A stretch of 64,000 bases of DNA from Acidobacteriota bacterium (GTDB taxonomy: Bacteria > Acidobacteriota > Aminicenantia > JBFLYD01). The position numbers and the translations under genes were made by a program. A model generated the notes under the pieces. That model was not told where the DNA came from and ran no database searches. It worked only from the letters and a program-made list of their open reading frames with translations. Location of the stretch: contig JBFLYD010000069.1 of assembly GCA_040756905.1 (NCBI GenBank), positions 10,560-74,559 on the forward strand. The letters run 5' to 3'. Below, piece after piece: positions 40,381 to 62,892 of this stretch (within the stretch, counting starts at the first letter, position 1; each line of letters starts with the position of its first letter).

Positions 40381-40522
40381 TTTTTATAATAAAATGTACA
40401 AAAAAGTAGAAAATTTAACAGAAAGTGATAAAGCCTATATTGCAGGTATAATGATTTGAAAAGTTATAAAAAACAACGTGCAAAATTAGTAGTAGAAAAA
40501 TATAAAGAACTAACCCCAAGAA

Positions 40523-42029: not shown

Positions 42030-43499
42030 CTAAAGGCCAATAAGCCTGGGAACTGTCATAACAACTGTCCAGATGATAACTATTCCGATTAAATCAATAA
42101 CTATCCCATTTTTTACCATAGAAACTAAAGGAATCAATCCAGAACCATAAACTATAGCATTTGGAGGGGTTGAAACTGGCAGTACAAAAGCAAAGCTTGC
42201 ACCAAGGGTTGCCCCCAATACAGAAGGTATTGGATTTAAATTAAGAGATTCTGAAATTGCTATCACTATTGGTATAAACATACTCACGGTTGCTGTATTT
42301 GAGACAAATTCAGTTAAGATGACGCTGAAAATAATACACATCAATGCCAAAATTCCAACATTACTTATTTTAAAATTTTCAACGAGGGAGTTTGCTAATA
42401 ATTTTGTAAAATCAGTTTTAAACATCATACCACCAAGCGTTAACCCTCCTCCAAAAAGAAGGAGTGTTCCCCAATCTATCGATAATGCTTCTTTAATAGG
42501 AAGAGTAAATTCACCTTTTTTCCAATTTGTAGGAAAAATAAACATTAGTATTGCTCCAATTAGCGATACAGAATATTCTGGAAGATGGGAATTTAACCAT
42601 TTATACAGAGAATTTTCTGCGCCTTTAACAATCGAAACAAACCCTGGAAAAATCCACAAAAAAACAACAATCAAAAAGATAATTAAAACGTTAATCTGTC
42701 CGTTTGTTAAGTTACCCTGTTTTTTGATAATGCTGTCAACACGAATTTTAGTTTTTGGGCAATATCTTTTAAAAAAAAGAAAAAGTATAAGATAACTTAA
42801 AAAAACAACGATAAGGCCAAACTCCATCCACTGGAAAAAAGTAATTCTCTTATCTAAAAACTTCAACATAAAACCCAGGCTGATCATGTTGGGTGCTGTT
42901 CCTACAGGTGTTCCTACACCTCCTATAGAAGCCGAATAAGCTGTTGATAGTAGAAGAGCTATTCCAAATCTTTTTGCTTGGGGAGTTTCTATTTTTGATG
43001 ACATAGAAAGGAAAATTCCATACCCTATCGGAAGCATCATTGCAGTGGTAGCTGTATTCTGGACCCACATCGATATAAATGCTGTAACCATCCCGAAAGC
43101 GAAAAGAATTCTTATGGGGTTTCCGGCCACAAATTTACTTGACAATATCGAGGAAGCAATTCTCTCATCAAGCTTATGATAACTCATACCTTTTGCGATA
43201 ATAAAACATCCTAAAAACAAAAATATAACTGGGTTCGCAAACTCTTCAAAGGACTCTTTAAAATTTGTTATTCCCATAATTATTCCCATTACAGGAATTA
43301 ATATTGATGTTATGGGAAGGGGCAGTGCCTCTGTAACCCACAAAACTACTACAAGAATAAACAGACTGAACACTTTATGAGCCTGAAAATTTTGTTCAAA
43401 TAAAGGAGAAATGTAAGCTAAAATAAAAGCAACAGGAGCCAAGAATAAACCAAACTTTTTCCTGAAAGAGGAGCCTTCCATTTCAAAGATTTTTTCCAT
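42030..43499 (-). CDS. DASS/SLC13-family anion (di/tricarboxylate or sulfate) symporter
   Basis: 489 aa, duplicated hairpin-loop topology, ArsB/NhaD-superfamily fold. Confidence 0.65.
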   Translation of the reverse strand: MEKIFEMEGSSFRKKFGLFLAPVAFILAYISPLFEQNFQAHKVFSLFILVVVLWVTEALPLPITSILIPVMGIIMGITNFKESFEEFANPVIFLFLGCFIIAKGMSYHKLDERIASSILSSKFVAGNPIRILFAFGMVTAFISMWVQNTATTAMMLPIGYGIFLSMSSKIETPQAKRFGIALLLSTAYSASIGGVGTPVGTAPNMISLGFMLKFLDKRITFFQWMEFGLIVVFLSYLILFLFFKRYCPKTKIRVDSIIKKQGNLTNGQINVLIIFLIVVFLWIFPGFVSIVKGAENSLYKWLNSHLPEYSVSLIGAILMFIFPTNWKKGEFTLPIKEALSIDWGTLLLFGGGLTLGGMMFKTDFTKLLANSLVENFKISNVGILALMCIIFSVILTEFVSNTATVSMFIPIVIAISESLNLNPIPSVLGATLGASFAFVLPVSTPPNAIVYGSGLIPLVSMVKNGIVIDLIGIVIIWTVVMTVPRLIGL

Positions 43500-44397
43500 T
43501 TTTCCTCGCGATGAGTATTAATTCGTCTTTCTTATTTAAAAATGCAGAAAATAAAATGAGCAAAAAAAAGATAGGTTTGAACATTTTTCTTAAGATAAAA
43601 TTTTCAGGAATATAATTCATTCTACAATCAATATTTTTTGTGTCGATGCTATTTTCATGCTTGTAATTTAAGGCTTCAAATCCACACTTCTCGAGTAACA
43701 ACTTAATATTTCTCAAATTATAAAAGTAATAGTGCTTATAATCCCATTTTAATTGGAAAAGAATAATAAGGGGATATTTAATTTTCCCAAAAGTAATTTT
43801 ATAAAGCAAAATTGCAAGAGATGACAAAAGTCCATGGGATGAAGGGATGCGCATGGCAATTATTCCATTTTTTTTAACTATGGAATTTATTTTATTAAGA
43901 AATAAATATGGGTCTGGTACATGCTCAAACACTGACCACATGGTCACCACATCGAAATAATTTTCTTTGAAGTTTATATCCTTTAATTCCCCTCTTATTA
44001 CTTTGTTTCTCTCTCGGGCAATGCTGTATGCAATTCTTGATGGCTCTATTCCATATGAAATAAATCTATTATTTCCTGCTATTTCAAGAAACCCTCCTGT
44101 TCCGCAACCAACATCCAAGAGCTTGCCTTCTTTTTTGTATTTTTTGATAAACTCGATTTCTCTTTCATACTGAGGTATTCTAAAGAGTCTTATAAATTCT
44201 TTGTATCTTTCAATATCAAAACCTACATAGTCCTCTCCTAAAGATTTTAGTCTTACAATTGGGTTCATCTGGATCAATTTACAATCTTTACATTTATAGA
44301 AATTGTTATTCTCGATTGAGAACAACAGCTTTAATTTCTTTTCACCACAGAGAATACAAGTTTTATTATTTACATCTTGGTCTGGCATTTTAATCAA
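43483..44397 (-). CDS. Class I SAM-dependent methyltransferase with N-terminal Cys4 zinc ribbon
   Basis: CILCGEKK...CKDCKL ribbon, then LDVGCGTGGF (motif I). Confidence 0.7.
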   Translation of the reverse strand: MIKMPDQDVNNKTCILCGEKKLKLLFSIENNNFYKCKDCKLIQMNPIVRLKSLGEDYVGFDIERYKEFIRLFRIPQYEREIEFIKKYKKEGKLLDVGCGTGGFLEIAGNNRFISYGIEPSRIAYSIARERNKVIRGELKDINFKENYFDVVTMWSVFEHVPDPYLFLNKINSIVKKNGIIAMRIPSSHGLLSSLAILLYKITFGKIKYPLIILFQLKWDYKHYYFYNLRNIKLLLEKCGFEALNYKHENSIDTKNIDCRMNYIPENFILRKMFKPIFFLLILFSAFLNKKDELILIARKNGKNL

Positions 44398-47125
44398 AAT
44401 TTAAGTCTTCTATAAAATCTTTAAACATTGTGTATTTATTCTTAAAAAAACTCTTTAAATCTGGGTATATTTTCATATAATCAAAAGCCAGATTTTTATC
44501 TCCATCAATTTTTATAACAAATTGAACTCTGTTTTTAAAACTTTTGTTTTTGAATTCAAAGGAAGCCAGTGAATAATTTTCTTTTACTTCTACCTTAAGG
44601 TCTAAAGGAAATTTAATCGATTCTTCCTTCTCTTCATTTTTAAAAATAATTTCTAATTCTCCTATTAAACCTCTGATCCTTGATGGATTATAAAAATACA
44701 ATTCAGCTATATAATTTTGAGGGATGAGTCTTTTCTCAGAAGAAACGGCCTCGAATACGTTACCATTCTGATTGAACGAGGGCATCAAAGCTTTGCCATT
44801 AAAGAAAATTTCTGATTCAATCAAATTCCCATTTATAAATTTAAACTCGTCATCTTCTATCAAATTTGTTTGAGTCCCTTTATATAATATGTAACCTATT
44901 CCTGAGAATTTTTCAAAGTTTCTAATCCATTCTTTATCATTCCCGAAGGAATCGAAGATTTTCAGATATTTTTTAAAATCTCTATCTTTTGAAATATTTT
45001 CTATATACTTTTTCCTTTCTTGGTTTTTGTCGAGCATCTTCGAACAATAATCCAAGTACAGATAAATTTCTAAATCCTTCTTATTTTTATTCTTGTTTTT
45101 AAGGGCTTTTAAAAAAAACTCCTCAGCCATATTAAAGTTTTGTAATTTTAAGAATTCTGAAGCTATATCAAATTCATCAGCACTCAGTTTTATAAAAGCA
45201 TTGTTTAGTTCTTTTGACGCTTTTATTGTTATCTTATAGATATATTTGTAGAAAGGAAAAGAAAGCATTGGGTCAATAACTTCATATGAATTGATTCCTT
45301 TTTTAACTTTTATTCCTTTCTTTAACAAAAAATTATTTACATAAACTTCTCCGTCGCTTTCTGGACTAAATATAAATATAGCAATTTGAGGTATTTTTTT
45401 TCTGCTTATGAATATTCTTTTTACTTCCTGATTTTTATCAATAAAAAAACTATTTATATCTTTCCCATAAACACTTCCGTCAGAAATTTCAAATTCTCTT
45501 ACCGGATTTTTATCAGCCATAACGGAAGGTAATGAAATTCTCTGTTTCACTCTATTTTGATTTTTCCCATTGTACATCTTTACTTCAGGGTTCTTGAATT
45601 CTATTTCTTTAAAATAAAAATCTTTGATCAATTCATGTTTAAAATTTAAATTTTTATACACAGGAGCTAAATCAGGATAGTATTTTTGGTTTTTTAAAAA
45701 ATGAGAATAACAGGCACTTGTCGATAAAATAAAATCAAAATTTCCAAACGGAGGAAAATCTCTCCAGAAAAGATAGGGTCTTGTAAAGAAAGTGTACTTG
45801 TAATTTTTATCAGATATCACAGGAAAAAACCATTCATTTCCAAAATTACTCTCCTCAGGAACATTTCTTCTTATCCATCTCTCTGCTATTTGAGTTGTAT
45901 CATCTTCCCAGAGGTAATAAACTTTGGAGAAAGCTCTATATCCCATTGAAATTACCAAAAAAGCGATCAACATAGAAAAAAAAACTCTGGTAATCTTATT
46001 ACTTTTAAGAAGAGAATGGACGAATAATATGCCAAATACACCAAAAAAAGAATAAAAAATAGAAAGAGTTGAAAGATCTCTTAAGCGAGAAAACCCAAGA
46101 AATCCAAGAGCTCCAAAAAAATAAATCAGTCCTGACAGAAAAATAAATAAATTCTCTCTGGTTTTTTTATAAAAAATCCAAGCAATTCCAAATAAAATTA
46201 AAATGAAATATATCGCCCCTTCAGTGGTAAATATATTCCAGATGCCTTGAACATATCTATTAAATTTTATTTGTTCAATTAAATTCTCTGGTTTAATTGG
46301 CCTTAAATACCATTCAGTTTCATGAACAAGATTGGTTAATAGAACTGAAGCTTTTATGAACATTTTGAACCTTAATAAAGCATAGGGATGTCCAGCAAAG
46401 AAGCCAAGAACTGTAAATATTCCAGCTAAAAATATTTTATAATCGCTTAAAATCTTAAAAAACCTTTTCTTTGCCTCAAATCCATACAGAAAATGTGCAA
46501 GAAGAATCGAAAAAATTATGAATATTCCATTGTATTTAGTGGCAACTGCAAGACCACTGAAAAAAGAAGCTAAAAGATAATAAATCAGCATGCCTTTTTT
46601 CATAATTAATGCACAAAAATAAAAAGATAGGGCATAAAAGAAAGTCATTGGAACATCAAGAACAATTTGATGGCTATAAAGGATATGTATAAAAGAAACT
46701 GAGAATAAAAAAGAAATTCCAATAGCTTCTTCTTCTGAATACAACTTCTTTCCTGTAAGATAAACAAGAAGAATTGTAAATGAACCCATCAATGAGGATA
46801 CAATTCTTGAAATTAAAAGTATATGATCAAATGAGAAATTATAGAGGTCAAAAGAAGAATTGAAACTTATTAAAGACAGAAATCCTGAAATTAATCTTAA
46901 TATTACTGCAACGATATAATTAAAGAAAATCGGATAGAAAAGGACAGGGTCTGGTTTCCAGTTTCCATGGTAAATTCTCTCAATATCTTTAGCAACAGGA
47001 ATATCATCTATTCTCTGATAGACTGAAGAAATTCCCCATATTCTTAAAAAGCACCCCATGACAAAAATAACGGAAATAAAAAGAAAAATTTGATGCTTTT
47101 TTATATATCTGAAGAGGTTTATCAT
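44390..47125 (-). CDS. GT-C fold (PMT_2/ArnT/TMTC-like) polyprenyl-phosphate-sugar-dependent glycosyltransferase with a large C-terminal TPR-like extracytoplasmic domain (paralog 1 of 4)
   Basis: About 11 TM helices in the first ~400 aa with the conserved TKY motif (VATKYNG); long soluble C-terminal half containing TPR-like helices. Confidence 0.6.
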   Translation of the reverse strand: MINLFRYIKKHQIFLFISVIFVMGCFLRIWGISSVYQRIDDIPVAKDIERIYHGNWKPDPVLFYPIFFNYIVAVILRLISGFLSLISFNSSFDLYNFSFDHILLISRIVSSLMGSFTILLVYLTGKKLYSEEEAIGISFLFSVSFIHILYSHQIVLDVPMTFFYALSFYFCALIMKKGMLIYYLLASFFSGLAVATKYNGIFIIFSILLAHFLYGFEAKKRFFKILSDYKIFLAGIFTVLGFFAGHPYALLRFKMFIKASVLLTNLVHETEWYLRPIKPENLIEQIKFNRYVQGIWNIFTTEGAIYFILILFGIAWIFYKKTRENLFIFLSGLIYFFGALGFLGFSRLRDLSTLSIFYSFFGVFGILFVHSLLKSNKITRVFFSMLIAFLVISMGYRAFSKVYYLWEDDTTQIAERWIRRNVPEESNFGNEWFFPVISDKNYKYTFFTRPYLFWRDFPPFGNFDFILSTSACYSHFLKNQKYYPDLAPVYKNLNFKHELIKDFYFKEIEFKNPEVKMYNGKNQNRVKQRISLPSVMADKNPVREFEISDGSVYGKDINSFFIDKNQEVKRIFISRKKIPQIAIFIFSPESDGEVYVNNFLLKKGIKVKKGINSYEVIDPMLSFPFYKYIYKITIKASKELNNAFIKLSADEFDIASEFLKLQNFNMAEEFFLKALKNKNKNKKDLEIYLYLDYCSKMLDKNQERKKYIENISKDRDFKKYLKIFDSFGNDKEWIRNFEKFSGIGYILYKGTQTNLIEDDEFKFINGNLIESEIFFNGKALMPSFNQNGNVFEAVSSEKRLIPQNYIAELYFYNPSRIRGLIGELEIIFKNEEKEESIKFPLDLKVEVKENYSLASFEFKNKSFKNRVQFVIKIDGDKNLAFDYMKIYPDLKSFFKNKYTMFKDFIEDLNFD

Positions 47126-47210
47126 TAGAATTAAAAATTATAATGAATGGAAAGTATATTTTCAATGAATTAGAAGGATAACATCATTCAGGAATATTAA
47201 GTTGTAAGGG

Positions 47211-48017
47211 TTAGATATTTAAATAATCCTTTATTGAACTGAATTTAAAGGATTCTAATAGTCTATCCAATTTTTTCTCGGCAGTTTTAAGATTAACATA
47301 ATGAATAAATCTTTCCTTAAAGGGTAAATCTAATTTGGGGGTTAAATCATCTATTTCACGGGGATGCAAATAGATCATAGCTGGCTGATTTTGTTTATTT
47401 AAATTTTTAATCCCCATCTTGATAAAAGAATAAGGAAAAAACCTTAGGTAAAAACCCCCTGAAAACGGTACTCTCATTCCTAATAAATTTAATGTTGTGG
47501 CGGGAATCTCTATTATATTGTTTATCCGATAAGGAAACCTCTCTGCATATCTGTCGCCATAAAGAAAGGTTTTCATTGGAAATATACTTGAATCATATAT
47601 AATTTCATTTCTTTCAAGTATCCTGAAAAACCAATCGAAATTCTGATAAGATGACCATGAAGGTGCTCTATAACCTACGATCTTCTCACCAGTAATTCCC
47701 TGAAGAACATCGATAGACCTTTTTAAATCTTCTTCGAATTCTTCAGGACTCTGTTTATATACAAGAACATGACTGTATCCATGAGTAGCAATTTCATGTC
47801 CTTTTTCCTTTATCATCAAAACAATATCAGGGTATTTCTCCGCAGTTCTGGCAAGAATGAAAAAAGTAGCTCTTGCATTATGCCTTTCACATAGGGAGAG
47901 AAATCTTTGAGTGTTAAATTTAAGTCTTTCATCCTCTCCAAATTTCCCTAAAAGGTCTACAACATCATAATTTGCATGAAACCATTCTTCGATATCAAAG
48001 GTTAAAAGGTTAATCAT
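47211..48017 (-). CDS. Polysaccharide deacetylase (CE4) family protein, ArnD-like, PEP-CTERM-locus subfamily
   Basis: N-terminal LTFDIEEWFH signature and NodB-type His motifs (THGYSH). Confidence 0.7.
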   Translation of the reverse strand: MINLLTFDIEEWFHANYDVVDLLGKFGEDERLKFNTQRFLSLCERHNARATFFILARTAEKYPDIVLMIKEKGHEIATHGYSHVLVYKQSPEEFEEDLKRSIDVLQGITGEKIVGYRAPSWSSYQNFDWFFRILERNEIIYDSSIFPMKTFLYGDRYAERFPYRINNIIEIPATTLNLLGMRVPFSGGFYLRFFPYSFIKMGIKNLNKQNQPAMIYLHPREIDDLTPKLDLPFKERFIHYVNLKTAEKKLDRLLESFKFSSIKDYLNI

Positions 48018-49944
48018 TTAAATTCTTCTGGAATGAAAAATAACCTATGTAAGGTTCATTTGGTTTTACTATTTGATTTATCTCTTTTGTAAATTCTTTA
48101 ATTTCTGAACTGATTTTTATATCTATATTTAAATACCCTCGACTATCAACGGCATTTCCGTTATAATCCACCTGGGTAAAAATAGAAATCACATGATTAG
48201 AATCTCTTTCAATATTTATCCTGATTTCCTTTGAAATACTTTCTCTTTCCGGAAATATTTTCAGTAAAATTTGTTTATCCAGCGTTAAATAAAACTGATT
48301 TTTTCCATTGTTTTTGTAGGAGACATCAAAATAAATTGTCTCATTATCAACGGATTCTTTCCGGCTGGTGTACAATTTATAAACAAATATTTTAGATCTT
48401 ATCAATCCCAATGACTTTCCCTTGAAAACTTTTATTAAATATGAATTCTCATTTATCCATTTATAGGCAGAATAATGATATGGAAATATCCTCTTTCTCT
48501 TTTCATCTCTTAAATACTGATTTTTAATGCTATCTGAAACGATTAAAAATTCTAAATCTGAGTCTTTAAAGCTTTTAAAATCTGATTCTCCAAATGAATA
48601 GAATAGATGAGCATTTTGAGATGGATTAAGTCCACACCTCATCTCAAAGGCATACATTGTATTATTCAGTTTTTTCTTAGTCCAATCCCAGCATTGAAAT
48701 TCAACACTTTTATTCGTTATTGCATCCAGGACATCTACTAATTTATAAACAGGCTGAATCATCACTAATAGCAGGAAGCCAAAAAATAAAGGAACTCTAA
48801 TTCTTTTTAGATGTTTTTCTAAAAAATTATTCAAAAAATAAAAAAAGAACGCGCATATTATTAAAACTGATGGAATCACAGGAAACACATGTCTTACTTC
48901 AAATTGATGGGTAAGAGCAAGGAAAAAATATATGAATATAGGTTGAATTATCAGTAAACAAAATTTATTTTCTCTATTAAAAATCACTCTTTTAAACAAA
49001 AAAATCATTGAAAAAATGAAAAATATAAATCCGATTAAACCAATATTCTCTATTAAAGCATTTATTAATGATGTCCAAGGATTAAAAGATCTTGCCAATA
49101 AATCTTGTTTGAATAAAACCGATTGCCTGTAGAAATCTTTTCTGAAAGCCTCAAAATCTAAGAATGAATATGGTGAAAAAAAGAAAACACTTATGATAAA
49201 GGAAAAAAATATAACCGCTGAATTCAAAATTAACTTTTTAAATCCGTCTTTCTTTTCGAAAAACCTCAAAATGACAGCTATTATTAAATTTATTCCAGCA
49301 AGAATCCCTGAATATTTTGTCGTAAGGGCTCCTGCTAAAAAGACACCTGACAAATTCAGGTTTTTAAGATCAGGTTTTTCATATACTTTAAAAGAAAATA
49401 AAATAACTAACGCAACAAATAATAATTGTATAGAATCTGGTTTTCCATAATGAGATAGCAATACTACATAAGGGCTCACAACTAATAACATTACGGCAAT
49501 ATTTTCTACTCTATGCTTTCCAAAATATTTTTTCATCAAATTGTAAATAATTAAAATCATTATAATTCCTGAAACAGCAGAAACAAACCTTGCAGAAAAA
49601 AATAGAAGAGGCATTACAGTAGTTTTGCTAACTAAATTTTCTTGAACAACCTCTGAAAAATAATGGAGAGAAAAAAAGTAAATGAATATTTTATAAAAAC
49701 CATAAATAATAAAAGTAAATAAAGCTGCTATATAAAAGTACAAAGAAGGGTAGAAAAACCAATGGAGGTTCAAATCTTTGTTTTCAATTATGTTATATAT
49801 TTTGGAAATCATCCCGTCTTCATCAGCAACAGTACTCATAAAAGGGAGTCCTGAGCCTATCCCATAAAGTCTTATTAATATTCCTGATAAAAAAAGAAAT
49901 AAAAAGATTTTATCTTTTTTCAAATCAGAAAAGATTTTTTTCAC
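48010..49944 (-). CDS. GT-C fold (PMT_2/ArnT-like) membrane glycosyltransferase (paralog 2 of 4, shorter C-terminal domain)
   Basis: Multi-TM N-terminal half with LTTKYSG motif; 644 aa. Confidence 0.6.
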   Translation of the reverse strand: MKKIFSDLKKDKIFLFLFLSGILIRLYGIGSGLPFMSTVADEDGMISKIYNIIENKDLNLHWFFYPSLYFYIAALFTFIIYGFYKIFIYFFSLHYFSEVVQENLVSKTTVMPLLFFSARFVSAVSGIIMILIIYNLMKKYFGKHRVENIAVMLLVVSPYVVLLSHYGKPDSIQLLFVALVILFSFKVYEKPDLKNLNLSGVFLAGALTTKYSGILAGINLIIAVILRFFEKKDGFKKLILNSAVIFFSFIISVFFFSPYSFLDFEAFRKDFYRQSVLFKQDLLARSFNPWTSLINALIENIGLIGFIFFIFSMIFLFKRVIFNRENKFCLLIIQPIFIYFFLALTHQFEVRHVFPVIPSVLIICAFFFYFLNNFLEKHLKRIRVPLFFGFLLLVMIQPVYKLVDVLDAITNKSVEFQCWDWTKKKLNNTMYAFEMRCGLNPSQNAHLFYSFGESDFKSFKDSDLEFLIVSDSIKNQYLRDEKRKRIFPYHYSAYKWINENSYLIKVFKGKSLGLIRSKIFVYKLYTSRKESVDNETIYFDVSYKNNGKNQFYLTLDKQILLKIFPERESISKEIRINIERDSNHVISIFTQVDYNGNAVDSRGYLNIDIKISSEIKEFTKEINQIVKPNEPYIGYFSFQKNLND

Positions 49945-50759
49945 GCTGGTTTAATTGCCTCAACCGCAAAAGAAGTTGATATGAATTTTTCAAAAAAATT
50001 AAGTTCTTTATTTCCTTCTGCCAATTTGGCCTTTCCAAAGGGAAAATATAGAAACAAAGCAGATTTTATAAATCCTCCATTATGCAAAAAATATTGCTTT
50101 ATCTCATCTCCAGTATAAACCCTTAGATTTTCATATATTTTTCTTTCTATAATCCTGAACAGATTTAACGTAATATTCTGACCGTTAATAGTGCTGACAA
50201 TTATCCTTCCTCCAGGTTTTGCTACCCTCAATAACTCTTCGATGAAAGTTTTTCCATCTTTTACAAGTTGCATTACATTATTTGAAACAACCATATCAAA
50301 ACTATTATCCTCAACAGGAAGTTTCTCTCCCGATGATTGAATAACATCAAAACCTTTTCTTTTTGCAAACATCAGCATTTCCAGGGAAATATCAATTCCA
50401 ACAAGAAAATTATTCTTACTCAAAGATTGGGAAAAATGACCGGTTCCACATCCCACGTCAAGAATTGACAGGCTTTCTACATTTCCAATCAATTTTAAAA
50501 TATTATCCTTTAGGAAATTAAAATTTTTCACACTGAAATAGGTGTTTGCTGCTTCGGTATCCCCTTCTTTTTTTGAAATCTCTCTAAAATAATCTTCCCA
50601 TCTCATATTCTGTTGGTCTGACTTTAACATAAGAGGAATATCATCAATTACTCTGTATGTTTTATTACATTTTGTACATTTTAGATTTGCATCTTCATAA
50701 ATCAGTTTCTGCTCGCATTCAATGCATTTTAGAATTGAAATTAGTTTCTCGTTTAACAT
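49941..50759 (-). CDS. Class I SAM-dependent methyltransferase with N-terminal zinc ribbon
   Basis: CIECEQK..CTKCNK ribbon; LDVGCGTGHF motif I. Confidence 0.7.
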   Translation of the reverse strand: MLNEKLISILKCIECEQKLIYEDANLKCTKCNKTYRVIDDIPLMLKSDQQNMRWEDYFREISKKEGDTEAANTYFSVKNFNFLKDNILKLIGNVESLSILDVGCGTGHFSQSLSKNNFLVGIDISLEMLMFAKRKGFDVIQSSGEKLPVEDNSFDMVVSNNVMQLVKDGKTFIEELLRVAKPGGRIIVSTINGQNITLNLFRIIERKIYENLRVYTGDEIKQYFLHNGGFIKSALFLYFPFGKAKLAEGNKELNFFEKFISTSFAVEAIKPA

Positions 50760-51824: not shown

Positions 51825-51829
51825 ATAGA

Positions 51830-52626: not shown

Positions 52627-52638
52627 TGTTTTTCTCCT

Positions 52639-53337
52639 TTACTTTTCTTTTCTTAACATTAAAACAAAAATTGAAAGAAATACTTTTGTCATATAATAAA
52701 CTGCCCTAAAAAAACTAATAGATGATCTTCCCCCTATTCTTTCCTCCATTTCCACATGGACTTCTTTAATTTTAATTCCTTTTCTTTTCAAAATGTAAAT
52801 TGCCTCAGGTTCAGGATAATCATCCGGATAGTTTCTGCTCAAAATTTCTATCGCTTTTCTATTATATGCCCTGAATCCTGAAGTGCTATCTGTAATTTCT
52901 TCTCTGAGCAATATTTTATTTGTTAAATAAAATAATTTTATTCCTATCCTTCTTAATAAAGAGCTTCGAAATGTAACCTTTTCAATAAACCTCGACCCGA
53001 TAATAACATCAGCTTCATTTTTAAGAATTGGTTCAATGATTTTTTTTACTTCTGACGGTTTATGCTGACCATCGCCATCTACTTGAACGGTAATGTCATA
53101 ATTATTTCTTTCACTATAGATGAAACCAGTCTGGACAGCGCCTCCAATTCCTATATTAACTGGGAGGTCTATAACATTCACAAAATCAAATTTTCTTGTC
53201 AATTCAGAAGTCTTATCGGTTGAGCCATCATTTATGACGACTACATCGAAGTCTGGGCAGAACTCTTTTACAGACAATAAAACCTTTTCTATGTTTTTCT
53301 CTTCGTTGAATGCTGGGATTATAACAATCTTTTTCAC
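52639..53337 (-). CDS. GT2 polyprenyl-phosphate sugar synthase (ArnC/GtrB/DPM1-like)
   Basis: IIPAFNEEKNI..VVVINDGSTD..VQVDGDGQH, with single C-terminal TM. Confidence 0.75.
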   Translation of the reverse strand: MKKIVIIPAFNEEKNIEKVLLSVKEFCPDFDVVVINDGSTDKTSELTRKFDFVNVIDLPVNIGIGGAVQTGFIYSERNNYDITVQVDGDGQHKPSEVKKIIEPILKNEADVIIGSRFIEKVTFRSSLLRRIGIKLFYLTNKILLREEITDSTSGFRAYNRKAIEILSRNYPDDYPEPEAIYILKRKGIKIKEVHVEMEERIGGRSSISFFRAVYYMTKVFLSIFVLMLRKEK

Positions 53338-56108: not shown

Positions 56109-56116
56109 ATCTAATT

Positions 56117-58870
56117 TTACTGTAGCAATTTTTTGAAATTATCAAAAGTTTCAAATTCTGATTTTAAGCTTCTAATCAAGTCAGGAAAAAAAGAGAAACT
56201 TTTTACCTTTACTTTATCGGGCTCCAAAAAGCTCGCGAAAATTTCATATTCTCCATCTCTATCGATGTAAAAATCGAATGTGAAACTCAAATAGTAATCC
56301 TTCTTATTAATCAGTCCTTTATTAACTTCTAATCTTTTTATAACATTTTCATCTAAACATCTATATAATTCGATACGACTTAATAAATTTTTTCTGAATT
56401 GAAGAACCCCGCCATAAATAGCGGGGATTCTTCGACGGCAAGGTATTTTATCATTAATATTGCTCGCCTTACCTGCCCCTGAAGGGGCAGGGTTGCAGCC
56501 AGCATTCCGTTCAATGGGAATTGAAAACAAAATTTCTGATTTATAAAAGCCCTTAGGAAGGTAAATCTTTCCGGATGAATACCTAATTTTTGATGGGTCA
56601 AAATCTTTTATTTCCAATTTTTCTCTTTCAATCTCTTTTTTTAAAATATAATTATAAAAGCTCAGGTCAACACCAGTGGCTTTTTCATATTCATTTAGTA
56701 GCTTTTCTGTATCATTATTTTTGATTGTTGATAAATTATCGATATGAAATATATTATATTTCTTGCCAATTTTATCGAGTATCAATTCTTCTCTTTTAGC
56801 TTTGATTTTTTCTCCCAGATTAATATAACATTTGAACAGTAATAAATGAAACTCAAAGCTTTCCATGAAATTGACCTCTTTTTCTTTCAGGTATGTTATT
56901 GCCTCTCTGTACAACTTTTCATCATAAAACATCTTCCCTATTAGAAGCGGATTTAAACCCAATTTAACTATAATCCTGCCCTGACCTTTCGAATAGATTT
57001 TTAATGGTATAAGCATTTTTGCAGGGTCAATTTTTGTGGACAATTTTATAATTTTCCTTTCCGAAGGATTTAAATTTATGTTGATTCTCTCTCTTCTGGT
57101 CTCAATCTTGATTTCCTTTTTATCCTTGCCATTAATTAATATTACATATATTTCACTTGAATCAGATAATATATACCGAATATACGGTATGCTCTCTGAG
57201 GAAATACCAGTATAAAAATCCTTGTCATAAAAATTTTGCCCATAACAAATTCTATATTTGTTATCCATGTTAAAAGGGATCTTCTCTACCAGAGGAAAAA
57301 AAATGGGGTTTTTTCTTTCAAAGGAATGTTTTTTCTTTTTCCATATTTCAAAATGTTTATTTAAAGCGATTGTGCCAAAATCATCCAAAAAGCACCTCTT
57401 TATTGGATAAAACTCTTTAGAAATCTCTTTAAAATATTGAACTCCTTCTCTGTATCGAAGGTTTTCTGGATTTCTCCAGTAAAATGATGTTCTACAGAAA
57501 AACAAATAATCTGCTTTAATGCTTAGAAGAAAAGGAAGATCGGTTTCTACGAAAGGATCTCTCATCACTACCCTGTAATCCTCACTTTTGAATGAAGGGA
57601 CCAATAAATCGAGTGCTAAATTTGAGCCTTTTTGGATATTTTCATTTAGATAAACTGATGCTAACTCATAAGAGTCAGGAAACTCAGCTAACATCCTATC
57701 AGCAACAACTATTTTTTTTATCGATGGGAAAAGAATTAAGATACTTAAAAATAAAAGAATAATTTTATTTTCAAAGATTGGTCTGATTTTTTCTGGAAAT
57801 AATTTTTTCAGGTCTATGACAAAAAATTTGGAAGCTAAAATTAAAAGAGAGGGAAATGTAACCATAATATATCTCTCTGAATAATTGTGAGAAAATGATG
57901 TAATTACATAAAAAACCAGAGGAAATGAAAGGAGAAGAATCATCTCTTTCCAGTATTTTTTAAAAAATATCAGAGAAAAAAAGAAAAACAGGAAAACAAT
58001 CAATCCAATTCCTTCAATTTCATCTTTTATAAATCTAAAATAAACATCTTCAGGATGCCACCCCATCCATCCAGTAAAATAATATCTTGCCCCTGAAAAA
58101 GTCTCTATCATCCTTGGAAATTGAATCACACAGTATGGACAACCAAGGAAGAACCCTAAAATAGAGAAAAAAATTATTACAAATCCATATAAAATTGCTT
58201 TTTTCAAATAAACAAATAATTTTTCATCCTTTCTAAAATTTAGAAGAATTGCTGTCAATCCTATAATTAATACTGGAAAATGATACTTTGCTGAAACTGA
58301 AAAGCCTGCAAAAAAACCGAACAGTAAGGCATATAATAAATTAAACTTTTTATAAAATAAAAACCCAAACAGTAAAGCCACTTCAAGAACGAGAGTATTC
58401 AATATATCAGGAAATGCCCAGTGAGAATTGACAGTATGAAGGAATGAAAATGTCAAAAATAATGCTGCGAAAAAACCTACTTTTTTATTAAATATTCTTT
58501 TCCCTATAAAGTAAGTTAATGGAATTGATACAGTGCCATATATTGCTGTGGGTATTCGAGTGGTAATTAATAAAAATTTAAAATTGGATTTAAGTAATTC
58601 AATAAACTGATATGAATCCTTAACAAACCCAGATATCTTCATCAGAATAAAAATCAGATATTGAAATACAAATGCTAAATAATAATTAAGAGATGGATAA
58701 CCAAAATCAACAGGAATAAAATTTTCTTCCCAGAATTTTAAAGAATTGGCATAAGTATCCCATTCATTGGGAATTATCGTAATCCCATTTCCCCACGCTA
58801 TTCCCCATATCCTGAGAAGAAAACCAACCAATATTAATGAAAAAACCAACCAGAAAAACTTATTTTTCAT
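56117..58870 (-). CDS. GT-C fold (PMT_2/ArnT/TMTC-like) glycosyltransferase with C-terminal TPR-like domain (paralog 4 of 4)
   Basis: VSAKYHF motif, multi-TM N-terminal half, TPR-like C-terminal half; contains a GC-rich double-hairpin segment at ~56405-56495. Confidence 0.6.
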   Translation of the reverse strand: MKNKFFWLVFSLILVGFLLRIWGIAWGNGITIIPNEWDTYANSLKFWEENFIPVDFGYPSLNYYLAFVFQYLIFILMKISGFVKDSYQFIELLKSNFKFLLITTRIPTAIYGTVSIPLTYFIGKRIFNKKVGFFAALFLTFSFLHTVNSHWAFPDILNTLVLEVALLFGFLFYKKFNLLYALLFGFFAGFSVSAKYHFPVLIIGLTAILLNFRKDEKLFVYLKKAILYGFVIIFFSILGFFLGCPYCVIQFPRMIETFSGARYYFTGWMGWHPEDVYFRFIKDEIEGIGLIVFLFFFFSLIFFKKYWKEMILLLSFPLVFYVITSFSHNYSERYIMVTFPSLLILASKFFVIDLKKLFPEKIRPIFENKIILLFLSILILFPSIKKIVVADRMLAEFPDSYELASVYLNENIQKGSNLALDLLVPSFKSEDYRVVMRDPFVETDLPFLLSIKADYLFFCRTSFYWRNPENLRYREGVQYFKEISKEFYPIKRCFLDDFGTIALNKHFEIWKKKKHSFERKNPIFFPLVEKIPFNMDNKYRICYGQNFYDKDFYTGISSESIPYIRYILSDSSEIYVILINGKDKKEIKIETRRERININLNPSERKIIKLSTKIDPAKMLIPLKIYSKGQGRIIVKLGLNPLLIGKMFYDEKLYREAITYLKEKEVNFMESFEFHLLLFKCYINLGEKIKAKREELILDKIGKKYNIFHIDNLSTIKNNDTEKLLNEYEKATGVDLSFYNYILKKEIEREKLEIKDFDPSKIRYSSGKIYLPKGFYKSEILFSIPIERNAGCNPAPSGAGKASNINDKIPCRRRIPAIYGGVLQFRKNLLSRIELYRCLDENVIKRLEVNKGLINKKDYYLSFTFDFYIDRDGEYEIFASFLEPDKVKVKSFSFFPDLIRSLKSEFETFDNFKKLLQ

Positions 58871-58953
58871 GAATTCTCGAACGACTCAAATTATCAAATC
58901 TGTCTCCGTTTTTCAATACTGAAGCCTTGATTTTTAAAAACATGAAAAGTTTT

Positions 58954-59760
58954 CTATTCAATACCATTAACATTTCTACCTTTAGAAAAAATTGGTAAGG
59001 CAAGAATTATTATACTTATAATTCCTAACAGATATTCATAGAATTGGGAAATCAGATGAAGAGTAAAACCTGAGACTATAGCTAATTTCCTTTCAAACCC
59101 TAACAGGGAAAAAGTAAAAGTCCAGCCCGCTTCCCATGTTCCAAAACCTGCTATTCCATGAAGGAGTAAAAAAGCCAGTAAATCTGCTGAGGAAATTCCC
59201 ATAACAACTTTAAAAAAATTTAGATTAAAAAAAGAGTATCCTGAAAATTTAAGAATTGAATGGAGAAGAAAATAGAGGGAGGTATACTTGAAAAGCCTGA
59301 TCAGGGTGGAAACTATAAAAACTTTAGTATAGATTCCTTTTTTTTTAATTTTTTTTATATCTTCTATGATTAAATTCAATTTCTCATGAATTAACGAGAT
59401 GCTTTTTCTTGTATTCAGATTAAATCTTTTAGAAAAATAGGAAAACAATTTACTTAAAATTTCGAGTAGTTCGGACAGAAATATAATTATTGCGAGAATT
59501 AGAATCAAAAATATAAAAGAAAAAGACACAATCTGCAATTCAGAAATGAAAGGAACGGTAAAAAAAACTGACAATAACAAGAAGGGAAAAAGACTCGCTA
59601 AATCGAAAAAAAATGCCATAAGAAATGTAGAGGCTGCGATTTCAAATGGAAAATTAAACCTTACATTGATTAAATAAATATATGAAAGAGACCCGGTTCT
59701 TGCAGGAAGCAAATCGACAAAAAGATTCCTTATCAGGGTAACAAAAATAAGGCTTTTCAA
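58954..59760 (-). CDS. UPF0104/LPG-synthase-TM-like flippase-like membrane protein; N-terminus probably continues to ~59985 in another frame
   Basis: ORF as tracked begins at TTG. Upstream 59808-59985 encodes (N)KQKNYFYFVLSILVTIILVIYLISFIKIQDIIDAFKNIYLSTLFAYFFLSF in a different frame, a typical N-terminal TM region, joinable through A/T homopolymers at 59820-59835. Confidence 0.5.
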   Translation of the reverse strand: MKSLIFVTLIRNLFVDLLPARTGSLSYIYLINVRFNFPFEIAASTFLMAFFFDLASLFPFLLLSVFFTVPFISELQIVSFSFIFLILILAIIIFLSELLEILSKLFSYFSKRFNLNTRKSISLIHEKLNLIIEDIKKIKKKGIYTKVFIVSTLIRLFKYTSLYFLLHSILKFSGYSFFNLNFFKVVMGISSADLLAFLLLHGIAGFGTWEAGWTFTFSLLGFERKLAIVSGFTLHLISQFYEYLLGIISIIILALPIFSKGRNVNGIE

Positions 59761-60227
59761 ATTTATATATGGAGAATCAATCAGAATTTTATACCTGTAA
59801 GCTCTTACAACTGCTCCTGAAAAAGAAAGAAAAAAATAAGCAAAGAGGGTCGATAAATATATATTTTTAAAAGCATCGATTATGTCCTGAATTTTAATAA
59901 AAGAAATAAGATAAATAACAAGTATAATAGTTACAAGAATAGACAGAACAAAATAGAAATAATTTTTTTGCTTATTTCATGTTTATTTAATTTCATCCAA
60001 TTAATTTTTTTTAAAAACTAATTTAGTCAAATAATATCCTTAGATAAACTTTTATGCTATTTAATATTTTTAAAATCATAACAGACTGTATTTTTTTAAT
60101 AAATATCATTTTAATTAATCCTCAAATTTCCTATTATATCATGTAAATGAAAAATTCCTTATTGCCTTTTAATTAATATTTATTTTAAAATATATAAAAG
60201 AAAATTCATGGGATTAAAGAGATTTAA

Positions 60228-61217
60228 ATGACAAATGTTCAAATCCCTTATAAAAGTAAAGTTTTCTACATATTACTTTTGATTTTTTTATTTCTCATAA
60301 TAATCATCTTTACATTTGCGTTTAATTTATTTGCAAAAATTTCAGATATGTTAGCAAAGACTTCAAATTCTTCAGAAGAACCTTTTACTGATTCTCCAGA
60401 AGATATAATCAAGACTTTAAAAGGAAAAATTGTTTTTCAATCAAATCGAGATGGTGACTTTGAAATCTTCATAATGGATGTTGATGGGAAAAACTTAAAA
60501 CAGCTTACCCATAATAATGCTGAAGACCAATACCCACGATGGTCTCCTGATGGGAAGAGGATCGTCTTTCAATCAAACAGGGATGGAAATTTCCAAATTT
60601 ATATAATGAATGAGAAGGGAAGGGATATAAGGAGGATTACCCACAACTCCTTTAATTGCTATAATCCCGAATGGTTCCCTGATGGGAGAAGGATAGCCTT
60701 TGACACCTTGGACAACGGGGATAAGATATTTGTGGTAGATCTCCATACTGGAAATGAAATGATGCTGACAGATTTCTGGTTCAGGACAATTCTCCCTGCC
60801 ATCTCACCTGATGGAAAGAGCATGGCTTTCACTGCAAACAAACTCTTTGGATGGGGAATTTATCATATGGATTTATCTACAAAAGAAATTAAACTTCTCG
60901 ACGGAGAAGGAGGAGCATGCCGCCCTGACTATTCTCCTGATGGAGAAAAGATTGCATATGTCAGTGGAAAGGGAAAGGGTAAAGAAAACATATGGGTTAT
61001 GAACCTCAATGGCTCAAACAAGATGCAGATTACAAAAAGTAAGACTACCTTTGATTATGACCCTTCCTGGTCGCCGGATGGAAAATGGATTGCATATGCA
61101 TCCTCTCATGATAAACATAAGGGAAACTGGGAAATATTTATAATAAGAGCTGATGGAAAACATCCTCTTCGCCTTACAAACCATCCTTCTCATGATAAAT
61201 TTCCCGATTGGTATTAA
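60228..61217 (+). CDS. TolB-like PD40 (WD40-like) beta-propeller repeat protein
   Basis: Repeated FQSNRDGDFEIFIMDVDGKN / FQSNRDGNFQIYIMNEKG PD40 units; N-terminal TM. Confidence 0.7.
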   Translation: MTNVQIPYKSKVFYILLLIFLFLIIIIFTFAFNLFAKISDMLAKTSNSSEEPFTDSPEDIIKTLKGKIVFQSNRDGDFEIFIMDVDGKNLKQLTHNNAEDQYPRWSPDGKRIVFQSNRDGNFQIYIMNEKGRDIRRITHNSFNCYNPEWFPDGRRIAFDTLDNGDKIFVVDLHTGNEMMLTDFWFRTILPAISPDGKSMAFTANKLFGWGIYHMDLSTKEIKLLDGEGGACRPDYSPDGEKIAYVSGKGKGKENIWVMNLNGSNKMQITKSKTTFDYDPSWSPDGKWIAYASSHDKHKGNWEIFIIRADGKHPLRLTNHPSHDKFPDWY

Positions 61218-61331
61218 TTTCACCTTCGGGTTTAAGTTCTCATTATCCATTATTTTCAACTTTTGAAGGCTTATTTTTTGTAAATTTATGTAATATATTA
61301 TACATTAAGAAATCAACAATGGATCAGAAAG

Positions 61332-62120
61332 ATGAAATTTTATTCAGGCGAAAGGGATTATCCAGAGGATAAAAAAACAAATCCTCGTTTCCAGCGAGAG
61401 CTGTCAGCTTATTTATTCTGTGTGAATTATGTCGAAAATAAATTTGTATTAGATGCAGGATGCGGTGAAGGATTTGGAAGTTTTCATTTAGCACAAAAAT
61501 CAAAAAAAGTTATAGGTATTGATAATTCAAGAAAAACTATCGAGAAGGCAAAACAAACTTACAGAAAAGATAACTTAGAATTTATGATGATGGATGTGAC
61601 TCACATGGAATTTCCTGATGAATATTTCGATGTTGTGATTTCTTTAGCTGTTATAGAGCACATAGAAGATTATGAAACTTATTTAAAAGAGATAAAAAGA
61701 GTATTAAAAAAAGAAGGAACTGGGATAATTTCTTTTTTAAATAAATTGTATAAATTTCCATTGGAACCATATCATTACAGAGAATTTAATCTGGTTGAAA
61801 TTAATGAATTAATGGAAAGATATTTTTCTGATATAGAGATATTCGGTATATTTGGGACCTCGAAAAATTCGATTTCATACAGGAAGAAAAGGTTAAAAAT
61901 AATCGATTTAGTCTATAAATCAGGCTTTTTTAAGTTACTAAGACTCACTCCCAGGAAATTATCGATAATCATTTATGAAATACTACATTTTCTGTTCAGA
62001 GAATTCCTATTTTTGCTTAAATCAAGAGAAATAATGAAAATTTCAACAGAAGACTTTTTAATCTCAAAAGAGAATTTAGAAAATGCTATTAACTATATCG
62101 CTGTATTCAGAAAATTATAA
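61332..62120 (+). CDS. Class I SAM-dependent methyltransferase
   Basis: VLDAGCGEGFGS motif I; DVVISLAVIEHI motif. Confidence 0.65.
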   Translation: MKFYSGERDYPEDKKTNPRFQRELSAYLFCVNYVENKFVLDAGCGEGFGSFHLAQKSKKVIGIDNSRKTIEKAKQTYRKDNLEFMMMDVTHMEFPDEYFDVVISLAVIEHIEDYETYLKEIKRVLKKEGTGIISFLNKLYKFPLEPYHYREFNLVEINELMERYFSDIEIFGIFGTSKNSISYRKKRLKIIDLVYKSGFFKLLRLTPRKLSIIIYEILHFLFREFLFLLKSREIMKISTEDFLISKENLENAINYIAVFRKL

Positions 62121-62136
62121 ATTAGTATATAAGCAT

Positions 62137-62892
62137 CTAAAATAATTTATCATATTTCTTCAATTTTAAATAAAAAAATACCTTTCCAATTTCAATGATT
62201 GCATTAAATATCTCAAAGAGATTAATTCTTTTTTGTTTTTTCCTATATTCAATTATCACTGGATATTCAACTATTCTCCATTCATTTTTTAACGCAATCA
62301 ATAAAAACTCTAAGTCAAAAATGTATCTTTTGCATTTAGTTTTCCTCAAGATTGAGTCTGCCAAGTCTTTTTTAAAAAACTTTATTCCGGTCTGTGTATC
62401 TGATAAATTAATTCTAAAGATAATTTTCACTACCAAATTAAATAAATTACTTAAAAACAGCCTTCTTTTTGGATAATTAATTTTAGATTCAGGGTGTCTT
62501 TTAGAGCCGATGAGAATATCAGCTCGATTTTCTTTGAAATAGTTTAAAAAAATAGGGATATTCTCAGGAACTATATCTAAATCAGAATCAATGAACCCTA
62601 CTATATCTCCCTGAGATAAAGATATTCCTTTTTTTATTGCATTTCCTTTTCCCGAATTCTTGCTTAGATGAATTATCCTTAGTCTATCTCCATAAATATT
62701 TTTCAATTCTTTCAACTCATTCCAGGTGCTGTCAAAACTTCCATCATCCACCACTATTATTTCATACTCTTGAGGGTTTACCTTCTTTATCTCTTTTTCC
62801 GCTAATTTAACTGCATTTCCTATTATATTCTGTACATTAAAAGCTGGTAGAATCAGCGAGATCTTTTTAAATTTGTTAATTGAATCACTCAT
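62137..62892 (-). CDS. GT2 polyprenyl-phosphate sugar synthase (DPM1/ArnC-like), second copy
   Basis: ILPAFNVQ..IIVVDDGSFDST..IDSDLD GT2 motifs. Confidence 0.75.
   Translation of the reverse strand: MSDSINKFKKISLILPAFNVQNIIGNAVKLAEKEIKKVNPQEYEIIVVDDGSFDSTWNELKELKNIYGDRLRIIHLSKNSGKGNAIKKGISLSQGDIVGFIDSDLDIVPENIPIFLNYFKENRADILIGSKRHPESKINYPKRRLFLSNLFNLVVKIIFRINLSDTQTGIKFFKKDLADSILRKTKCKRYIFDLEFLLIALKNEWRIVEYPVIIEYRKKQKRINLFEIFNAIIEIGKVFFYLKLKKYDKLF

Follow-up and report, generated by a model that had tools for sequence, protein, structure and literature searches.

Gene organization of the block

The 64,000-nucleotide stretch of contig JBFLYD010000069.1 analysed here, referred to as the window, contains a block of twelve minus-strand genes (43483-59996) for a candidate lipid-carrier glycosylation system. 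The block encodes a glycosyltransferase family 2 (GT2) enzyme with a DUF2304 partner, a carbohydrate esterase family 4 (CE4) deacetylase, a small EamA protein, a FemX-like transferase (hereafter Fem), two S-adenosylmethionine (SAM) methyltransferases with zinc ribbons, four large transferases of the glycosyltransferase C (GT-C) type named GTC911, GTC917, GTC924 and GTC644, and a frameshifted flippase-like membrane protein (Table 1). The genes are co-directional and overlapping and show operon-like packing, with intergenic distances of -8, 85, -8, -4, 0, 80, -4, 12, -4, 8 and 83 bp in order of rising coordinate, and the start and stop codons of GTC644 overlap both of its neighbors. The operon boundaries are drawn on spacing; consensus promoter and terminator scans of the block gave no excess over shuffled sequence, and no sigma-54 (-24/-12) site was found upstream of it.

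Table 1 Genes of the twelve-gene block, in order of transcription, and genes beyond its upstream end. TM, transmembrane; TPR, tetratricopeptide repeat.
Product	Position	Strand	Profile match or annotation
LPG_synthase_TM / TIGR00374 'flippase-like' membrane protein, frameshifted; first gene of the block	58954-59996	-	PF03706, TIGR00374
GTC917, PMT_2-family GT-C paralog, 917 residues; C-terminal β-sandwich/short TPR/β-sandwich module	56117-58870	-	PF13231 40.8 bits
GTC924, GT-C paralog, 924 residues	53334-56108	-	100% identical to MEW6457435.1, NCBI annotation GT39 family
GT2, candidate polyprenyl-phosphate (N-acetyl)hexosamine synthase, GacI/PpgS/DPMS type	52639-53337	-	PF00535 97.8 bits
DUF2304, small 3-TM protein, GacJ/Rv3632 family	52255-52626	-	PF10066 94.4 bits
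4-TM EamA/drug-metabolite transporter (DMT)-type small membrane protein, distantly ArnF/ArnE-like	51905-52258	-	PF00892 39.2 bits
Fem, FemX-like tandem-GNAT transferase (Acetyltransf_6)	50760-51824	-	PF13480 43.8 bits
Class-I SAM methyltransferase, N-terminal Trm112-like Cys4 zinc ribbon	49941-50759	-	PF08241 83 bits
GTC644, GT-C paralog, 644 residues, without TPR	48010-49944	-	PF13231 68.9 bits
CE4 (NodB-fold) de-N-acetylase with C-terminal DUF3473	47211-48017	-	PF01522 75.5 bits, PF11959 137 bits
GTC911, conserved cassette GT-C, 911 residues, full module	44390-47125	-	PF13231 49 bits, PF02366 44 bits
Methyltransf_23 SAM methyltransferase, N-terminal Cys4 zinc ribbon; last gene of the block	43483-44397	-	PF13489 81.5 bits
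Membrane-anchored TolB-like PD40 propeller	60228-61217	+	
SAM methyltransferase, third in the region	61332-62120	+	
Second GT2, DPMS/ArnC-like	62137-62892	-	PF00535 107 bits

Predicted donor synthesis, deacetylation and tailoring

Families were assigned by Pfam and NCBIfam profile scans. The scans agree with a preceding sequence-only reading of the window on the GT2, DUF2304, CE4, FemAB-like and 4-TM EamA proteins and on three SAM methyltransferases, and all open reading frames (ORFs) listed in that reading are present where it placed them. The Arn/Gtr-like lipid-carrier route that it had proposed is likewise supported, in that both GT2 proteins of the region find their best solved matches among polyprenyl-phosphate glycosyltransferases (Pyrococcus DPMS, ArnC and GtrB). 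The GT2 of the block, in which no TM helix is detected, matches DPMS best (5mlz, E 7.6e-15), followed by ArnC and GtrB. With 100.9 bits for the PpgS model (NF058614, cutoff 370) and 80.7 bits for AglJ it comes nearest to these two models, as a relative below equivalog level; the ArnC model assigned 44.2 and 62.8 bits to the two GT2s (cutoff 529).

A gap of 12 bp separates the GT2 gene from that of the DUF2304 protein. GacJ, a member of the same family, forms a complex with the N-acetylglucosamine-phosphate-undecaprenol synthase GacI and lowers its Michaelis constant for undecaprenyl phosphate, and Rv3632 stimulates PpgS (bioRxiv 10.1101/180810). Because it belongs to this GacJ/Rv3632 family, the DUF2304 protein is predicted to be an activator subunit of the adjacent synthase, and not part of a flippase as had been suggested from the sequence alone. 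For the 4-TM EamA protein, the ArnF model gave 37 bits (cutoff 99) and the ArnE model 25 bits (cutoff 92), making it a candidate flippase for a de-N-acetylated lipid-linked sugar. The indications of a flippase role among the small membrane proteins are hence the EamA match of 39 bits and the ArnF score below cutoff, plus the frameshifted LPG_synthase_TM gene.

The CE4 protein reaches 255.6 bits with TIGR03006 (cutoff 276.2), carries the motifs TFDIEE and HGYSH, and matches peptidoglycan and chitin deacetylases (E 4.5e-13). CE4, Fem and the methyltransferases are all without TM helix or signal peptide, as for cytoplasmic proteins. No ArnT or ArnD model match at E <= 0.01 was obtained in the NCBIfam scan of the block, and neither ArnA nor ArnB, which serve UDP-Ara4N synthesis, was found among the scanned ORFs of the 64-kb window.

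Fem scores 113.4 bits with TIGR03019 (cutoff 260.35), and its closest solved structure is that of Weissella FemX, which is aminoacyl-tRNA-dependent (E 6e-4); the Fem family alignment has 70 invariant columns. The protein is therefore best described as a candidate aminoacyl or acyl transferase tailoring the donor, encoded by a core gene of the cassette. The profile matches of the methyltransferases are generic (UbiG/UbiE/BioC-like) and below cutoffs, and Trm112p (PF03966) is annotated on the ortholog of the Fem-adjacent methyltransferase in one related locus, L001. Most plausibly, Fem and this Trm112-ribbon methyltransferase act on the donor or on its precursor. A literature search for the function of the TIGR03006/TIGR03019 pair, or for Acetyltransf_6 beside GT-C, turned up locus tables alone.

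Membrane core of the GT-C transferases

The four large GT-C paralogs (911, 644, 924 and 917 residues) are 22-30% identical to each other, as the sequence-only reading had recognized them to be paralogous, and each has ~13 hydrophobic segments with the last near residue 400. In GTC924, ~13 TM helices extend to residue ~412 and are followed by a proximal periplasmic domain (415-527) and a C-terminal module (530-924). An AlphaFold2 model of this protein (predicted local distance difference test score, pLDDT, 69; about 80 in the TM region) retrieved STT3, AglB, PglB, ALG9/12, ArnT, EmbA/B/C and Pmt1/2/4 in Foldseek at E 1e-9 to 1e-4, and the modelled core accordingly has a GT-C_A fold, in support of the earlier GT-C identification. 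Invariant across 14 family members are R30, G33, Y66-P67, R109, H154, D159, K199-Y200 and R350, and the profile built from the TM region matches Chaetomium Pmt4 (E 9e-5) with R109, H154, Asp159 of 'LLD' and 'TKY' in register. Lack of a catalytic Asp/Glu loop, which would have spoken against the sequence-only reading, does not apply to these proteins, as acidic residues are present in the first external loop (loop 1) of all four paralogs, namely E43/D44 in GTC924, D39/D40 in GTC911, E36/D38 in GTC917 and D40-E41-D42 in GTC644, located ~10-14 residues after an RxxG motif. The (T/S/A)KY motif, which had been placed after about ten TM helices, lies at residues ~197-200, after 5-6 helices, and aligns with the 'TKY' of the protein O-mannosyltransferase (PMT) family. 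PF13231 is matched by all four paralogs (41-69 bits) and PF02366 by two. For none of these proteins did Pfam match a MIR domain or a PMT_4TMC region (E <= 0.01), and matches to the arabinosyltransferase family (Arabinose_trans) were absent for the GT-Cs in Pfam and NCBIfam.

A C-terminal module with lectin-like domains

Residues ~405-530 correspond to the usual periplasmic domain of the PMT_2 family, which is common to a 558-residue archaeal homolog and GTC644. Beyond it, GTC911, GTC917 and GTC924 add a module of ~390 residues; GTC917 as a whole protein can be aligned with its paralogs from end to end. By sequence, the module holds 1-1.5 canonical TPR units, with Pfam matches below the gathering score, and consensus-TPR proteins match profile positions 658-708 alone. 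A model of the module based on a 23-sequence alignment (pLDDT 87.2, predicted template modelling score 0.87) has two β-sandwiches separated by seven helices, and a long helix at its end; 2-3 TPR-type hairpins are predicted between the β-sandwiches, which resemble carbohydrate-binding modules (CBMs) or lectins. The large TPR-like domains of TMTC type described in the sequence-only reading do not agree with this arrangement. The modelled architecture is that of a GT-C with lectin-like domains, following an Emb-like logic, and probably favors a glycan acceptor.

An exhaustive search of 1.84 billion cluster representatives with the module profile yielded 573 matches, most of them to the TPR part alone. 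Among the best 150 of these, a few dozen cover most of the module, with the full-length ones mostly at residues ~520-900 of proteins of 880-1140 residues, and the module-bearing GT-Cs thus appear to constitute a rare subfamily. In GTC644, the C-terminal region of ~240 residues consists of the proximal periplasmic domain and ~115 residues beyond residue 530, which can be read from the sequence as a single extra β-sandwich.

Two peculiarities of GTC917 were observed. Its gene carries an in-frame insertion of ~120 nt (56396-56515, minus strand) that encodes 'IERNAGCNPAPSGAGKASNINDKIPCRRRIPAIYGGVLQF', has a GC content of 49% compared to 30% for the gene, and contains the perfect hairpins CTGCCCC-TTCA-GGGGCAG and CCCCGC...GGCGGGG (RNA fold z = -5.3). 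The insertion is absent from paralogs and homologs and belongs to no Rfam family; the window contains it once, and a comparison of exact 25-mers with the metagenome contig collection gave no match. Possibly it represents an element similar to miniature inverted-repeat transposable elements or repetitive extragenic palindromes, accommodated by a loop within the second β-sandwich. Moreover, the 90%-identity cluster of GTC917 has an unrelated 41-residue representative (MYKTDTKDSLIEMYHYRVEALQ...) that stems from Tara and JGI samples, a clustering artefact through which GTC917 could be missed in representative-based searches.

Conservation of the cassette

Conservation was assessed in two scans. 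The first covered species-representative genomes, in which the window proteins were then mapped by tblastn, and the second covered metagenome contigs anchored on the Fem-like protein (80 loci). Neighbor counts refer to Fem relatives of at least 39.5% identity in loci with enough flank, and lineages were collapsed at 70% Fem identity. Metagenome-assembled genomes (MAGs) of Aminicenantes and others share the order GT2, DUF2304, EamA, Fem, methyltransferase, CE4, GT-C (911 type), methyltransferase, with the proteins of this eight-gene cassette being 40-84% identical to those of the window. The cassette core occurs in at least 18 lineages, from MAGs and metagenomes, with host GC contents of 35-65%, and the environments represented are sediment, wetland and bioreactor metagenomes next to the Aminicenantes MAGs. 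Three forms can be distinguished: type A with the full eight-gene order, type B, which is type A without EamA and CE4, and type C, composed of a GT-C (924 type), Fem, methyltransferase and a GT-C (911 type).

Fem, methyltransferase and GT-C are nearly invariant members of the cassette. The methyltransferase adjoins Fem in 28 of 29 assessable loci. A GT-C lies downstream of Fem in 18/22 loci (GTC911 orthologs 38-55% identical), and upstream are found a GT2 in 19/26 (orthologs 57-71% identical) and DUF2304 in 20/28, the DUF2304 orthologs (69-85% identical) always adjoining GT2. In most of the complete loci of types A and B, the GT-C is directly followed by an ortholog of the last methyltransferase of the block (38-54% identity), and GTC924 orthologs (32-36% identity) head the type-C cassettes. 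CE4 and EamA vary together: nine lineages have both and eight have neither, while EamA alone occurs in one and CE4 alone in none.

The version in the window is the most expanded one seen, with GTC917, GTC924 and the flippase-like gene added upstream, and with GTC644 inserted between the methyltransferase and CE4, genes that adjoin each other elsewhere; GTC644 is absent from this position in all type-A loci. No close orthologs of GTC917 or GTC644 were present among ~160 fetched loci. In the reading proposed below, GTC911 is the ancestral transferase of the cassette and GTC924 a second conserved partner. GTC917 and GTC644 were added in this lineage, which suggests that one donor serves several acceptor sites or linkages.

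Some related loci have distinctive surroundings. In six loci (L007, L011, L016, L084, L087 and L093) divergent genes flank the cassette and encode an SBP_bac_5 periplasmic binding protein, a histidine kinase with HAMP domain and an NtrC-type response regulator dependent on sigma-54, located in L016 at 742-5164 on the minus strand upstream of the cassette. This arrangement suggests signal-controlled expression of the cassette in those lineages; no SBP_bac_5, kinase or NtrC-type genes were found beside the block among the scanned ORFs of the window. In L124 and L156, Fem homologs of 39-45% identity have CE4 directly upstream, not downstream, and no GT-C nearby. As this order resembles that of PEP-CTERM exopolysaccharide (EPS) loci, CE4 and Fem appear to form a module that glycan pathways of at least two kinds have in common. 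Recurrent clusters of flanking ORFs in high-GC loci are probable antisense artefacts, as judged by strand and position.

Proposed glycosylation mechanism

Based on the family assignments, the modelled folds and the comparison of loci, we propose that the block probably encodes an extracytoplasmic glycosylation system with multiple components, of the same kind as Gtr, Arn, GacI/GacJ/GacL and PpgS/Rv3779, extended by donor-tailoring enzymes and extra transferases. At the cytoplasmic face, as homology indicates, the GT2 and its DUF2304 activator would use a nucleotide sugar to load polyprenyl phosphate with a hexosamine, which is most likely N-acetylated. The cytoplasmic CE4 would then de-N-acetylate the lipid-linked sugar, and the amine-bearing lipid would be flipped by the 4-TM EamA protein, repeating the ArnD-ArnE/F logic. 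Both steps are suggested by family, location and strict co-variation of the two genes, the co-variation being the main evidence from which we infer a functional coupling of CE4 and EamA. The FemX-like transferase and the zinc-ribbon methyltransferases may decorate the donor or its precursor, e.g. through aminoacylation or acylation together with methylation. Finally, the GT-Cs would move the sugar onto an acceptor in the periplasm, presumably a surface polymer, with the lectin-like module pointing to a glycan. On-lipid donor remodelling before flipping and loci with multiple GT-Cs both have precedents (PMC11127046). Features of the three-component (GtrA/GtrB/Gtr*-type) scheme, in the form in which Mann & Whitfield 2016 is cited in PMC11127046, are found here as well, i.e. 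a GT2 synthase, a GT-C fold with acidic residues in loop 1, and clustered, co-inherited genes.

Several observations weigh against this proposal. Every named-equivalog score (PpgS, ArnC, ArnF, TIGR03006 and TIGR03019) is below its curated cutoff and ArnT is not matched, which makes the sugar identity and the enzyme specificities tentative. By sequence, the TM core finds its best PDB counterpart in a protein O-mannosyltransferase, and the full-length model of GTC924 is of moderate quality. Type-C cassettes have no GT2 nearby. Furthermore, Fem and the methyltransferase persist in type-B and type-C cassettes that are devoid of CE4. Fem hence must be able to act without a neighboring deacetylase and may have a substrate other than the donor amine; since it is kept without CE4, its role is not a simple re-acylation of the amine freed by that enzyme.

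A more specific scheme, in our judgement unlikely, is that polyprenyl-phosphate hexosamine is aminoacylated in an aminoacyl-tRNA-dependent manner and methylated on the lipid, and then flipped and delivered to a surface glycan. Here, the nearly invariant trio of Fem, Trm112-ribbon methyltransferase and lectin-type GT-C would define a new subclass, and CE4 with EamA an optional deprotect-and-flip module. Were this scheme true, it would be the first case in which a lipid-linked sugar donor is tailored in a tRNA-dependent manner, and one operon would supply candidate deacetylase and flippase classes for the mycobacterial galactosamine (GalN) pathway.

The main rival explanation concerns the acceptor: the GT-Cs could be bacterial PMT-like protein O-glycosyltransferases for secreted or envelope proteins, with the module recognizing protein. 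Pfam PMT and PMT_2 matches, the NCBI annotation as GT39 family and the tendency of TPR units to bind peptides are compatible with such a role, as is the fact that, of the PDB entries, fungal Pmt4 alone resembles the TM core significantly in sequence, the R, H, LLD and TKY positions being aligned. However, PMT_2 is a broad family that also spans ArnT-like lipid and glycan transferases, and the MIR domain and PMT_4TMC region went undetected. Two CBM/lectin-like β-sandwiches dominate the module, which includes only 2-3 TPR hairpins, and the context of CE4, EamA and DUF2304 parallels glycan and lipid modification systems. We consequently regard protein O-glycosylation as quite improbable.

Modification of lipid A or of the lipopolysaccharide (LPS) core by an ArnT-like route seems very unlikely. 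In such a route a cationic hexosamine would be added to LPS and alter the surface charge, with CE4 and EamA as equivalents of ArnD and ArnE/F. The combination of GT2, CE4, a 4-TM EamA protein with an ArnF match and GT-C does follow the ArnC-ArnD-ArnE/F-ArnT logic, the host is diderm (see below), and several related loci adjoin a two-component system, as arn operons do PmrAB. Yet none of the proteins scores as an ArnT, ArnD or ArnC equivalog, with the GT2s at 44-63 bits against 529 for ArnC, and the scanned window ORFs lack ArnA and ArnB. In addition, ArnT-type enzymes are ~550 residues long (537-541 in 5f15/5ezm) and have no 390-residue lectin-like module, and half of the cassette lineages are without CE4 and EamA.

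Chance juxtaposition, with Fem and CE4 acting on peptidoglycan or exopolysaccharide and the methyltransferases on quinones or lipids in no shared pathway, would fit the generic methyltransferase matches and the occurrence of the CE4/FemAB pair in PEP-CTERM EPS loci without GT-C, but is extremely improbable given the start/stop codon overlaps along the block, the gene order kept across the lineages despite their range of GC content, and the neighbor counts of methyltransferase and GT-C around Fem.

Relation to known systems

The proposed glycosylation system belongs to a mechanism class that is already known, and overturns no concept. It shares with GacI/GacJ/GacL of Streptococcus pyogenes and PpgS/Rv3632/Rv3779 of Mycobacterium tuberculosis the pair of GT2 followed by DUF2304 and an extracytoplasmic GT-C that uses lipid-linked N-acetylhexosamine or hexosamine. 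The mycobacterial pathway also needs de-N-acetylation of the lipid-linked sugar, and its flippase and deacetylase have no assigned proteins, whereas here one operon carries both a CE4 deacetylase and EamA as the flippase candidate. Further differences are the FemX-like transferase and the two zinc-ribbon methyltransferases as core components, the 390-residue lectin-like module of the GT-C, and the presence of four GT-Cs. The view in the sequence-only reading that no described pathway is involved accordingly requires qualification, as the GT2, DUF2304 and GT-C core is the one described for these two systems, whereas the elaboration with Fem, methyltransferase, CE4 and lectin module is undescribed. 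No publication characterizing this cassette emerged from a literature search. Nor did any characterized O-antigen or ArnT locus emerge as a match to the block, and no ArnT, ArnD or ArnC equivalog score was obtained.

In the Arn pathway (ArnC, ArnD, ArnE/F and ArnT), which provides lipid A with aminoarabinose, the logic of loading, deprotection, flipping and transfer is the same, with a GT2, a NodB-fold enzyme, a 4-TM DMT-type protein and a GT-C. ArnD is the NodB-fold enzyme that deprotects the aminosugar on undecaprenyl phosphate. The block differs in having a single EamA gene instead of an E/F pair, in the group removed, presumed to be acetyl instead of formyl, and in the acceptor module, which is missing from ArnT. 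The eukaryotic TMTC1-4 and other O-mannosyltransferases of GT-C plus TPR type combine a PMT_2-type GT-C core at the N-terminus with a C-terminal extracytoplasmic extension that includes TPR, but the resemblance is superficial. TMTCs carry a long TPR solenoid, while in our proteins 1-1.5 TPR units by sequence, or about three hairpins in the model, are accompanied by two β-sandwiches. The PMT/GT39 enzymes share the PMT/PMT_2 N-terminal domain, the conserved Arg and TKY, and differ in the MIR and PMT_4TMC regions that were not detected here.

An architectural parallel is offered by the Emb/Aft arabinosyltransferases, where the C-terminal domain of Emb is a lectin-like CBM that holds the glycan acceptor (PMC3044687). 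In both cases, a GT-C_A core is followed by CBM-like β-sandwich domains, and several paralogs use one lipid-linked donor. The likeness is one of architecture alone, with no relation of sequence family detected; the module here has the order CBM-like, short TPR, CBM-like plus a terminal helix, and the donor is probably a hexosamine instead of arabinofuranose. Finally, in XrtA/PEP-CTERM EPS loci, e.g. of Rubrivivax gelatinosus, genes of the TIGR03006 and TIGR03019 families are adjacent. The same two families are found here, but CE4 and Fem are separated by a methyltransferase and below the equivalog cutoffs, half of the lineages have Fem without CE4, and the context is GT2/DUF2304/GT-C and not Wzx/Wzy-type EPS synthesis.

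Lipid-carrier glycosylation decorates LPS, teichoic acids, arabinogalactan and cell-wall polysaccharides, and thereby affects surface charge, phage receptors and antigenicity. What is new here is the conserved FemX-like transferase with zinc-ribbon methyltransferases, the linked CE4 and EamA, the CBM-like/TPR/CBM-like module and the set of four GT-Cs. The cassette is compact and widely distributed in the environment, and an abundant uncultured lineage probably owes part of its envelope character to it. CE4 and EamA, located beside a GacI/GacJ-type synthase, are testable candidates for the unassigned steps of the mycobacterial GalN pathway, and the linkage of a FemX-like enzyme and methyltransferases to GT-C hints at undescribed donor-tailoring chemistry.

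Boundaries and chromosomal setting

The sequence-only reading had described one island reaching from 43483 to 62892 and containing two synthases. The arrangement is not a chance one, given the gaps of -8 to +85 bp and the recurrence of the cassette in many unrelated contigs, but the block ends at 59996. The genes at 60228-62892 form separate transcription units, and other loci do not have them next to the cassette, except for weak scattered GT2/methyltransferase cross-matches. As they do not accompany the cassette elsewhere, the PD40 propeller, third methyltransferase and second GT2 count as unproven members of the system, and the block and its conserved cassette contain a single synthase.

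While the genes named in that reading are real, the frameshifted LPG_synthase_TM gene at the head of the block had been missed. It is interrupted at an A7 run (59963-59969), and addition of one A restores an ORF of 347 residues with an ATG at 59996. The product, which scores 41.9 bits with PF03706 and 31 bits with TIGR00374 and matches profile positions 71-299 alone, would belong to the MprF flippase-domain family; the gene is not conserved beside the cassette in the other loci compared. The frameshift may have arisen in assembly, may mark a pseudogene or may reflect slipped-strand variation. Homopolymer density is 0.77 per kb in the island and 0.56 per kb in the rest of the window, a comparison that gave no sign of designed phase-variable tracts.

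The window has a GC content of ~30-37% and contains the housekeeping genes suf and carAB, a transfer-messenger RNA (tmRNA) gene and two tRNAs. Because genes for OmpA, a TolC-like OEP, FadL and a TonB-type outer-membrane barrel are present, the host is a diderm; it is an uncultured, Aminicenantes-like bacterium. The nearest syntenic relative is the Candidatus Aminicenantes MAG SKW293, with a CarB that is 70% identical. There, carA-carB lie directly upstream of the cassette (L008, 1147-5608), while in the window they are found at 35522-39860, 3.6 kb from the block, which is inverted, with the tmRNA gene, an Amidase_3 gene, a Germane-domain gene and a Na/sulfate-type symporter in between. The carAB/cassette neighborhood is hence conserved with local rearrangement, and because it is shared with a related Aminicenantes MAG, we consider the block a stable chromosomal operon. 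A mobile island was rejected on the same grounds, the cassette directly following carAB in the relative and carAB being nearby here. Neither an integrase nor a tRNA-flanked boundary was seen at the block, and its GC content of 28-30%, compared to about 34%, fits membrane proteins rich in Phe, Ile, Lys and Asn.

Two further features of the window are unrelated to the block. The tmRNA gene (40036-40383, Rfam 171.9 bits) has the predicted tag AETLPVAA, which is shorter than common tags of the ANDENYALAA type. At 16660-19960, on the minus strand, a radical-SAM gene is located in-between two genes for DUF5128 six-bladed β-propellers, an arrangement that recalls cassettes of the peptide-maturation or quinoprotein type.

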